Below, piece by piece: positions 1 through 1,418 of a stretch of DNA of 1,418 nucleotides. The translations under genes and the position numbers were made by a program. The stretch is from the sequence record AJ621579.1; one strand, given 5' to 3'. Each line of letters begins with the position of its first letter. Within the stretch, counting starts at the first letter, position 1. The notes under the pieces were generated by a model that worked only from the letters and a program-made list of their open reading frames with translations, was not told the origin of the DNA and did no database searches. This DNA is from Enterobacteria phage TuIa.

Positions 1-23
1 GGAAAGGTTGTTGCATAATTTTA

Positions 24-48
24 GGGAGACTTCGGTCTCCCTTTTGTG
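24..48 (+). terminator. Rho-independent terminator: 7-bp GC-rich stem GGGAGAC/GTCTCCC with a TTCG tetraloop, followed by TTTTGTG
   Basis: Read directly: 24-30 GGGAGAC, 31-34 TTCG, 35-41 GTCTCCC (perfect inverted repeat), then T-run 42-45. On the minus strand the hairpin is followed by an A-rich rather than U-rich tract, so it is oriented to stop a + strand transcript from an upstream gene. Confidence 0.7.
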
Positions 49-60
49 CGTTTAGGGCAG

Positions 61-106
61 AAAAAGTTAAAAAAGGTGTTTACTCTCCTGTAGGATGTGT
101 TACTAT
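61..106 (+). promoter_or_regulatory. Sigma70-type early promoter (T4-early-like): A-rich UP-like tract, -35 GTTTAC(T), extended -10 TGtTACTAT
   Basis: A-rich tract 61-76 (aaaaagttaaaaaagg); GTTTAC at 78-83 (hexamer TTTACT 79-84); TG at 98-99 followed by TACTAT 101-106; spacer 16 bp. Predicted transcription start near 113-115. Located immediately after a terminator and about 45 nt before the ORF1 start. Confidence 0.6.
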
Positions 107-140
107 AGACTTGTACCACCTAATCGATAAAACAAACCGG

Positions 141-144
141 AGAA
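141..144 (+). promoter_or_regulatory. Shine-Dalgarno site (GGAG) for ORF1
   Basis: GGAG at 141-144, 4 nt (aata... spacing region aataaa overlaps) before ATG 149-151; A-rich spacer typical of T4 translation initiation regions. Confidence 0.75.
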
Positions 145-148
145 TAAA

Positions 149-514
149 ATGAACTACATCAACTTCGAACGTAAATATGTTTCTAACGGTATCGCTGGTT
201 CTTCTGAAGTTATTTGCTTATGGAAACACGAAAACGGTACAGATTGTGAAATCGAACAGTGCATGACTCCTAATTACGTTTATATGCGATTTGAAAACGG
301 CATCACGGTTTCAATCACGATGGAAGGTTCCAACTTCAAAATTGCATTAGATGACGATTTCCGTCAACGTGATTTAGGTACTCATCCTTGCTGGAACGGT
401 GTTAATCGTAAACTTCTGGTTAAAACTTGGATTCGTCATATCCTGAGTAACCGAGCTAAACCTGAACATCTCGAAGCAATCTTTGATGTAGTTCTTAACG
501 AATTCGATATCTAA
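149..514 (+). CDS. Hypothetical phage early protein, 121 aa, no recognisable motif (ORFan candidate); contains a Cys/His cluster
   Basis: ATG start with GGAG SD, TAA stop at 512-514. I re-translated the whole frame by hand and it matches the ORF track. Codon choice is T4-like (cgt, ggt, aaa, gaa, gtt, tct preferred). Sits directly downstream of the early promoter. Confidence 0.8.
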   Translation: MNYINFERKYVSNGIAGSSEVICLWKHENGTDCEIEQCMTPNYVYMRFENGITVSITMEGSNFKIALDDDFRQRDLGTHPCWNGVNRKLLVKTWIRHILSNRAKPEHLEAIFDVVLNEFDI

Positions 515-520
515 TTTAAC

Positions 521-538
521 TGGGAGCTTCGGCTCCCA
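521..538 (+). promoter_or_regulatory. Intercistronic GC-rich stem-loop with UUCG tetraloop and no U-tract; likely RNA stability/processing or attenuating element rather than a full terminator
   Basis: 522-527 GGGAGC, 528-531 TTCG, 532-537 GCTCCC, with an extra T521/A538 pair. Followed by ACTGAGGAAATT, not a T-run. Near-identical to the hairpin at 24-41. Ends 3 nt before the ORF2 SD. Confidence 0.55.
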
Positions 539-549: not shown

Positions 550-1164
550 ATGTTTAAAGTTAATACTTTTTATAAAATGAATTTTAAAAATGGGGATATT
601 ACTCCACGCCTTAAAAACATGTTCTCATATGACCTTATCGAGCCTTTTGAAGTTTTAGAAGTTACTGATGCCGGCACGGTTTGTGAAATTAGAACTTCTG
701 AAGGTAAAATTTATCAGGCAGGTGTTGGTAAATTCAGTAATTGTTTTTCTTTAATATTCTCGACCGATTTAGATGAGCATTTTATTGAATGTCCTAATCC
801 TAAGGACTATGAAGTTCCACATCAAGAAACTAAGAAAAATGGCCCGCACGAATATACGAAGGTTGAAACTCCTCACGGCGTGATGTGGCGTCATAACTCT
901 CCTTTTGGAAGTAAAGGAACATTTGCTCAACCGTCTAAACCGTATGACGATGAAAAATACATCGTCGTCTTTTTATCTGAACAGGGCACTCAAGACCGTG
1001 GATGCCAACGAAGTGGTTTACTAAGTGAACTTGAAGCTCATAACCAAGCACGTGAATTCGTTGAGAAAAATCCTGGTTCTGAAGCTCTAGTCATGAAAGC
1101 AATTACTCAATATATCACTGCTCAACCTGTTGTTCATCCGGTAGAAATTAATTTCGTTAAGTAG
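550..1164 (+). CDS. Hypothetical phage early protein, 204 aa, no recognisable catalytic motif; apparent two-domain layout with a Pro/Lys/Glu-rich central segment
   Basis: ATG 550 with GAGG SD; TAG stop at 1162-1164. No promoter is evident between ORF1 and ORF2, so it is probably co-transcribed with ORF1 from the 61-106 promoter. Central segment about residues 82-135 (PNPKDYEVPHQETKKNGPHEYTKVETPHG...SKPYDDEKY) is compositionally distinct from both flanks. Confidence 0.8.
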   Translation: MFKVNTFYKMNFKNGDITPRLKNMFSYDLIEPFEVLEVTDAGTVCEIRTSEGKIYQAGVGKFSNCFSLIFSTDLDEHFIECPNPKDYEVPHQETKKNGPHEYTKVETPHGVMWRHNSPFGSKGTFAQPSKPYDDEKYIVVFLSEQGTQDRGCQRSGLLSELEAHNQAREFVEKNPGSEALVMKAITQYITAQPVVHPVEINFVK

Positions 1165-1194
1165 TTTACATCCAAGGACGGATTAGAGTATAAT
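1164..1194 (+). promoter_or_regulatory. Sigma70-type early promoter (T4-early-like): -35 GTTTACA, -10 TATAAT, 18-bp spacer
   Basis: GTTTACA at 1164-1170 (TTTACA 1165-1170), perfect TATAAT at 1189-1194, AT-rich tract upstream (1146-1163). The -35 begins at the last base of the ORF2 stop codon. Predicted transcription start near 1201-1202. Confidence 0.65.
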
Positions 1195-1220
1195 GATTTC
1201 TTTAGTAAGTGGAAAAAAAT

Positions 1221-1418
1221 ATGAAATTTTTAATAGCACAAACAGTCCAATTAAAAGGTGTTGGAATTCCTGGGATGATTTTTAAAGTTCTTCATGAATT
1301 TAAAACCGCCGCTGGAATTATCAATGAAGCGTATGCTGTTCAATGGGTTGATGGGACTTCTGACATACGTATGGGTAAAGAGTTATCTCCTATTAAAGGT
1401 TTAAAATGTCTGAGTTAG
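1221..1418 (+). CDS. Hypothetical small phage early protein, about 65 aa from ATG 1221 (ORF track starts at GTG 1209, giving 69 aa); function unknown
   Basis: Open frame 1209-1418 ending in TAG at 1416-1418, the last bases of the window. ATG 1221 is preceded by a purine-rich GTGGA/GGA (1209-1213) at SD-like spacing. The GTG at 1209 lies only about 7-8 nt downstream of the predicted transcription start with no SD, so ATG 1221 is the likelier start. Has its own dedicated promoter. Confidence 0.6.
   Translation: MKFLIAQTVQLKGVGIPGMIFKVLHEFKTAAGIINEAYAVQWVDGTSDIRMGKELSPIKGLKCLS

Follow-up and report, generated by a model that had tools for sequence, protein, structure and literature searches.

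Introduction

What is a near-consensus sigma-70 promoter doing directly in front of a reading frame of only 65 codons in the early region of a T-even phage, does it serve that reading frame alone, and at which codon does translation begin? These questions are raised by the 1,418-nt stretch of phage TuIa DNA analyzed here (the window), which carries three co-directional open reading frames (ORFs), and for which an initial annotation, made from the letters alone, had proposed that ORF3 is an independently promoted small protein with a misassigned GTG start and the look of a phage inhibitor. Part of the answer is already known, in that gene 30.5, its name and its ATG-started 65-residue product can be found in public databases, and a sister phage has the promoter in its record. 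The reading that I favor, and to which I would give a probability of roughly 80%, is that TuIa gene 30.5 begins at ATG 1221 and encodes an SH3-like protein that probably binds host polyphosphate kinase (Ppk), and that the promoter in front of it is an internal early promoter of a transcription unit running to the DNA ligase gene.

The segment from gene 30.9 to gene 30.5

An exact-sequence look-up identified the three ORF products (121, 204 and 65 residues) as the deposited TuIa proteins gp30.7, gp30.6A and gp30.5 (Table 1), and megablast against phage genomes returned 672 records, the best of which, at 96-97% identity, were all Mosigvirus (RB69-like T-even) coliphages. Going by annotated relatives, the window belongs to the early genes that separate rIII from DNA ligase, which run in the order 30.9, 30.8, 30.7, a 204-residue ORF, 30.5, 30.4, 30.3, 30.2, 30.1 and 30, and the window shares this synteny with T4 and Mosigvirus genomes. 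Judged by its sequence, the window covers 30.9'-30.7-30.6A-30.5 of TuIa, a T-even, Mosigvirus-like coliphage, within a variable early region.

Table 1. Features of the 1,418-nt TuIa window (coordinates count from its first letter).
Feature	Position	Strand	Basis
3' end of gene 30.9, stop TAA 16-18	1..18	+	window 1-153 aligned to related sequence L001 2501-2653; end of the L001 30.9 CDS = 2518
Hairpin GGGAGAC-UUCG-GUCUCCC, then U run	23..46	+	fold -17.2 kcal/mol
Putative upstream early promoter TTTACT-16-TACTAT	79..106	+	read from the sequence; fits T4-group PeSL consensus TTTACW...TAYWAT (PMC4122927)
gp30.7 (ORF1), 121 aa	149..514	+	Pfam PF06919, E 1.4e-50; identical to TuIa CAF21716.1
UUCG-tetraloop hairpin between 30.7 and 30.6A, without U run	521..538	+	fold -13.1 kcal/mol
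gp30.6A (ORF2), 204 aa	550..1164	+	phrog_17531, E 4e-144; identical to TuIa CAF21717.1
Putative T4-type early (sigma-70) promoter, G-TTTACA, 18-nt spacer, TATAAT	1164..1194	+	11/12 match; same site annotated in phage vB_EcoM_SA79RD
Untranslated leader, predicted start ~1200-1202, weak SD GGA 1211-1213, A7 tract	1195..1220	+	indels in relatives; SD duplex -3.3 kcal/mol
Gene 30.5 (ORF3), 65 aa, ATG 1221, stop TAG 1416-1418	1221..1418	+	phrog_1690; identical to CAF21718.1/Q400H0
Start (13 nt) of the downstream gene, a 30.3 homologue (MSEL...), within the 3' end of 30.5	1406..1418	+	matching start in contig L014

Near the left end of the window, the hairpin at 23-46 occupies a site that the SA79RD and NRG-P0074 records mark as a rho-independent terminator, and it reads as a terminator after 30.9 that would form the stem-loop half of a PeSL (promoter-early stem-loop) type of cassette, such as those described together with early promoters in the T4 group of phages (Arbiol et al., 2010, PMC2839356; Comeau et al., 2014, PMC4122927). 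With the promoter at 79-106 included, the element at 23-106 is a complete PeSL, having both stem-loop and promoter. This promoter stands ahead of 30.8 in relatives and, according to the junction analysis, is joined to 30.7 in the window. Gene 30.8 (approximately 442 bp) is absent from the window and present in every best-matching complete genome (window 1-160 compared with L001 2501-3100); up to about position 140 the window carries the terminator, promoter and leader of the 30.8 type at 95% identity, and a brief ribosome-binding site/start motif common to both genes, GGAGAAnAAAATGAA, marks the change to coding sequence of 30.7, a junction across which none of the 12 best phage matches is colinear. 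The loss looks like a deletion through recombination of the similar PeSL-like promoter-leader cassettes that precede 30.8 and 30.7. Recombination of 62-bp direct repeats was rejected as the route, given the loose similarity of the two upstream regions and a junction that falls within the short ribosome-binding site/start homology. The hairpins at 23-46 and 521-538 are both G+C-rich with UUCG tetraloops; the second ends 5 nt ahead of the gp30.6A Shine-Dalgarno (SD) sequence and may have an effect on RNA stability or translation instead of termination.

The gene between this hairpin and the promoter under discussion, gp30.6A, has no Pfam match, and its N-terminal 100 residues show weak PHROG similarity to phrog_8920 and phrog_622, two uncharacterized phage families. 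When proteins were clustered at 90% identity, the 65-residue gp30.5 and the 204-residue gp30.6A fell together into one 214-member cluster, which suggests a bridging fused or mis-called ORF, or else a clustering artefact. Inside the gp30.6A coding sequence, and also in the 5.9-kb contig L014, there is a terminator-like hairpin at 944-978 (8-9 bp, -10.6 kcal/mol, then CTTTTTATCT); the count of terminator-like sites was 3 against an expectation of 0.9 +/- 1.0, and this one could equally be chance. If it did terminate some transcripts, there would be a purpose for a downstream promoter.

The gene 30.5 protein and its likely partner

Homology and structure searches with the product read from ATG 1221, which has the 65 residues (MKFLIAQTVQLKGVG...) that the initial annotation had given it, found the gene 30.5 family and yielded a model of an SH3-like barrel. 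The protein aligns with phrog_1690 over residues 1-62 (E 4.9e-28), finds T4 gp30.5 (P0010) at E 8.9e-30 in a profile search, and by tblastn is 65.6% identical to T4 gp30.5 over residues 1-64 of 65, and the top match of a BFVD structure search was Q400H0, at 100% identity. Homologues are 62-67 residues long, their alignments with the ATG-1221 product begin at its residue 1, and the family keeps one position, from 30.7/30.6 to 30.4/30.3 and ahead of ligase, in T4, SA79RD, NRG-P0074, mar005P1 and L014, the last of which encodes an identical 65-residue protein. A word-indexed protein search returned 9 close relatives only, and an exhaustive profile search through 1.84 billion representatives gave 7 matches, all of 60-74 residues except P0013 (707 residues), which was rejected as a family member and is a spurious tandem-repeat translation. 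By these sequence searches the family has few members, all of them in T4-like phages.

No Pfam match was found for gp30.5 at E <= 0.1, nor for eight family members at E <= 10, and a sequence profile search of the PDB with gp30.5 gave noise only (E >= 0.27; beta-lactamases and similar). The AlphaFold2 model is all-beta with seven short strands (pLDDT 77, that is, moderate confidence; pTM 0.58). When this model was compared with the PDB using Foldseek, the best match was YorP (2heq; E 3.9e-3, TM 0.63), with none at E <= 0.001, and further fold matches, small SH3-like barrels as YorP is, included HspQ, Tudor/PWWP domains and R67 DHFR, while a phage DUF2158 protein was among the best matches in BFVD (E 8.7e-4, TM 0.71). 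The protein is thus predicted to be a small SH3-like beta-barrel, a generic binding fold as opposed to a mark of family membership, and some phage records label gp30.5 homologues 'YorP' or 'DUF2158'.

The T4 orthologue has attracted more attention. T4 gene 30.5 is of the early class for both RNA and protein (PMC9697503 supplement), and a recent preprint describes that co-expression of T4 30.5 with the bacterial NLR-related protein bNACHT11 strongly reduces colony formation, that T4 with 30.5 deleted partly evades bNACHT11, and that T4 30.5 co-purifies with host Ppk, as confirmed by reciprocal immunoprecipitation (bioRxiv 10.1101/2024.12.17.629029, version 2026-05-04). Since TuIa gp30.5 is 66% identical to the T4 protein, the same mechanism most likely holds, and by this analogy gp30.5 would be an early protein that binds host Ppk, and might affect it, with the caveat that Ppk binding rests on one preprint on a T4 protein 34% different from that of TuIa. 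Of the small phage inhibitor that had been guessed at, the early, host-directed protein remains, as it fits the T4 orthologue with its links to Ppk and bNACHT11; inhibition, for T4 as well, is conjectural. What can be said of TuIa gp30.5 is that it belongs to a family experimentally linked to host Ppk and to bNACHT11 sensing.

A probable promoter in the gap after gp30.6A

The promoter motif foreseen in the initial annotation is present as described. The stop codon of ORF2 (TAG, 1162-1164) ends in the G that is also the first base of GTTTACA (1164-1170), the -35 element TTTACA (1165-1170) is followed by a spacer of 18 nt (1171-1188) and the -10 element TATAAT (1189-1194), and the 11/12 match is the sole site of at least 10/12 on either strand of the window. 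Counting 7 +/- 1 nt from the -10 element gives a transcription start at about 1200-1202, in agreement with the 1201-1202 predicted earlier. Neither late (TATAAATA) nor MotA-type middle (TGCTT...TANNNT) promoter motifs were found in the window.

How far the motif can be trusted was gauged with 2,000 dinucleotide shuffles of the whole window, scanned on both strands, 99 of which (approximately 5%) contained a site of at least 11/12, so that the motif alone is just moderately unusual. At such a rate per 1.4 kb several sites of this quality are expected in a 170-kb genome, and the one here could then be a chance or weak sigma-70 match, with gene 30.5 expressed by read-through from the promoter at 79-106, as in T4. 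The spacer, which at 18 nt is within the 16-18 nt usable by sigma-70 and departs from the 17 nt of the T4-group early consensus, can be counted in favor of chance, as can the variation among phages: of 103 phage records, 63 have the 42-nt promoter core unchanged and the other 40 show one or two mismatches in it, and the two variants that were read, ST0 and mar005P1, have a T-to-G change in the -35 element that brings the match down to 10/12. Furthermore, in T4, Gelderlandvirus and Karamvirus the 30.5 homologues are expressed without such a promoter, and the window holds no terminator between ORF2 and ORF3, so read-through from the upstream promoter should reach ORF3 in any case.

However, the match lies on the coding strand and exactly in the sole sizeable intergenic gap, the 56 nt after ORF2, with the end of the -10 element 26 nt ahead of the start codon, and this placement is stronger support for a promoter than the motif itself. 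The site is also the best match in L014 as well as in the window, an AT-rich stretch lies upstream of the -35 element, and similar elements precede other early genes of the region. Its -35 element has the T-even form GTTTAC, not TTGACA, and so fits TTTACW, just as the -10 element fits TAYWAT (consensus of PMC4122927). I therefore regard a chance match with expression by read-through as unlikely, and I retain the early promoter, whose function at 1164-1194 is suggested by motif and position taken together; a search of the literature found no published transcript 5' end maps for TuIa, Mosigvirus or T4. No hairpin is present upstream of the promoter and its -35 element abuts the ORF2 stop codon, and for these reasons it is to be seen as a bare early promoter, an incomplete PeSL.

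Distribution among T-even phages

The promoter is present only in Mosigvirus-type phages that have gp30.6A in place of 30.6, amounting to approximately 113 phage records, and scans of IMG/VR added 9 loci found through the protein and 1 through the promoter pattern. RB69 (L017, NC_004928, 6889-7222), the type Mosigvirus, has 30.6 and is without 30.5, from which it follows that gene 30.5 is dispensable and has been gained or lost within Mosigvirus.

This distribution invites a more elaborate history, in which the promoter would be a recent, lineage-specific gain that came with the gp30.6A swap and uncoupled the genes from 30.5 to ligase, and in which polymorphisms of the leader would adjust the output of a protein that helps the phage by binding Ppk and endangers it by triggering bNACHT11. 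If this were true, the promoter could compensate for partial termination at the 944-978 hairpin and its T-run, the tuning variants would be the A5/A6/A7 tract, GTGGA versus GTGA and the T/G polymorphism of the -35 element, and these would reflect selection on expression level from host immune pressure. I consider this history improbable. The relatives are only 3-4% diverged, so that little about selection can be read from the otherwise invariant promoter. Whatever their origin, promoter-bearing and promoter-less 30.5 arrangements offer a possible comparison set for gauging what amount of this protein is tolerable to a phage.

A probable early transcription unit reaching DNA ligase

The initial annotation went further than a promoter and saw one dedicated to the 65-residue gene, a claim that did not survive a look at the DNA beyond position 1418, where, in L014 and in annotated genomes, 30.3 or 30.4, 30.2, 30.1 and ligase follow closely. 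The counterpart of window ATG 1406 in L014 opens a 152-residue gene of PF08010 (Phage_30_3), which is followed by 30.2, 30.1 (DUF3045), DNA ligase and alt.1, most of them overlapping and the rest a few nt apart, whereas in most Mosigvirus genomes it is 30.4 that follows 30.5, with an 11-nt overlap. A self-contained monocistronic unit, with a private and separately regulated promoter for a 65-residue inhibitor, would suit a promoter directly upstream of 30.5 and a product that is small, early and, in its T4 orthologue, able to bind a host protein; it is nevertheless very improbable, considering that the ATG of the next gene sits 13 nt inside ORF3, that genes overlap or lie <10 nt apart through to DNA ligase in every related genome and contig read, that a scan of L014 past the promoter, and past ORF3, turned up nothing terminator-like on the plus strand, and that 30.5 is translationally coupled to both of its neighbors in other genera. 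From its sequence setting, 1164-1194 is best taken for an internal early promoter in a polycistronic early unit ending with ligase, and the case shows that in the T-even early region a promoter beside a small gene is not to be called private until the downstream genes have been checked.

The last three residues of gp30.5 follow the identity of the downstream gene, the protein ending in KCLS where a 30.3 homologue comes next (the window, L014, L015 and the T4-like contig L016) and in KHVE where 30.4 overlaps (most Mosigvirus genomes; compare window 1400-1418, L014 2205 and L001 4349). The 3' end of gene 30.5 appears to have been swapped jointly with its downstream neighbor.

Taken as an internal promoter, the site suggests the following course of events. 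Unmodified host sigma-70 RNA polymerase would use the TTTACA-18-TATAAT promoter straight after infection, beginning at approximately 1200-1202, and the resulting transcript, with a leader of about 20 nt and a weak GGA as its SD sequence, would be translated into gp30.5 from ATG 1221. Both these transcripts and those reading through from the 30.7 promoter would enter the next, overlapping gene, a 30.3 homologue in TuIa and 30.4 in most relatives, and go on to 30.2, 30.1 and gene 30 (DNA ligase). The gp30.5 protein would act early by binding host Ppk and may be detectable by the NLR-related sensor bNACHT11.

The start codon of gene 30.5

The start codon was addressed by comparing nine close sequences, the window and ST0 among them. 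The distance from the -10 element to the ATG is 21, 24, 25 or 26 nt in these sequences, the indels are not multiples of three, and only the window and ST0, which share an A7 tract, have GTG 1209 in frame, six others having it out of frame and one having GCG instead, while the first 45 nt from the ATG are invariant in all nine. Every homologue, including T4 gp30.5 and the distant ones of Gelderlandvirus and Karamvirus, begins at a methionine aligned with ATG 1221. From the predicted transcription start, ATG 1221 has a leader of 19-21 nt with GGA (1211-1213) placed 7 nt upstream of the ATG, and the Mizar record has a ribosome-binding site annotated at the position of this GGA. The purine-rich GTGGA to which the initial annotation had pointed is real but weak, its SD duplex of -3.3 kcal/mol comparing with -6.6 for gp30.7 and -6.1 kcal/mol for gp30.6A, and L014 has GTGA in its place. 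For GTG 1209 the leader is 7-9 nt, close to the 7 nt given before, and the duplex with the 16S 3' end comes to +0.6 kcal/mol, meaning no SD pairing, again as anticipated.

These comparisons argue strongly for ATG 1221, not GTG 1209, as the start codon of 30.5. Translation from GTG 1209 into a 69-residue protein (MEKNMKF...), which an in-frame GTG and no intervening stop would permit in the window and ST0, is hardly credible when the GTG is out of frame or absent in seven of nine close sequences and has neither SD pairing nor a leader beyond 7-9 nt, when no homologue carries the N-terminal extension and the 69-residue form is absent among approximately 15 billion proteins, and when ST0 shares the in-frame GTG yet is annotated at the ATG. 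The view that an annotated GTG start is wrong was hence right about the ATG and mistaken about the annotation, the GTG being just a mechanical longest-ORF boundary and the deposited record using the ATG. Longest-ORF calls can add false N-terminal codons in this way whenever an indel in the leader brings an upstream GTG into frame. A separate oddity is found in the 60-kb T4-like metagenomic contig L016 (2560-2580), where 30.5 starts with ACG and not ATG (...GAGGTTCTAACGAAATTC...) and the gene caller used a TTG four codons downstream to give 61 residues; the start may have been lost, initiation may be near-cognate, or the sequence may be in error.

Comparison with known systems

The nearest known counterpart is T4 gp30.5 (NP_049819.1, Q02406), which resembles TuIa gp30.5 in length, in its N-terminus and in its position between rIII and ligase. 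The two differ in their last three residues and in the downstream neighbor (30.3 in TuIa, 30.4 in T4), and they differ upstream: in Tequatrovirus genomes, T4 included, 30.6 and 30.5 overlap by stop and start codon (TAATG), with a GAGG SD sequence inside 30.6 and no promoter, and the 30.5 start of Gelderlandvirus and Karamvirus likewise overlaps the upstream gene, whereas TuIa has a 56-nt gap with the promoter. The position held in T4 by 30.6 (95 residues, PF26902) is taken in TuIa by the unrelated 204-residue gp30.6A. For YorP (2heq) and DUF2158 the likeness to gp30.5 is one of general fold only, with no Pfam match and no significant PDB sequence match behind it. Lastly, measured against the PeSL cassettes of PST and T4, the TuIa promoter differs in having a spacer of 18 nt instead of 17 and no preceding stem-loop, and it agrees with them in the fit of its -35 and -10 elements and in lying in a hyperplastic region beside a gene, here gp30.6A, that differs between related phages (PMC4122927).
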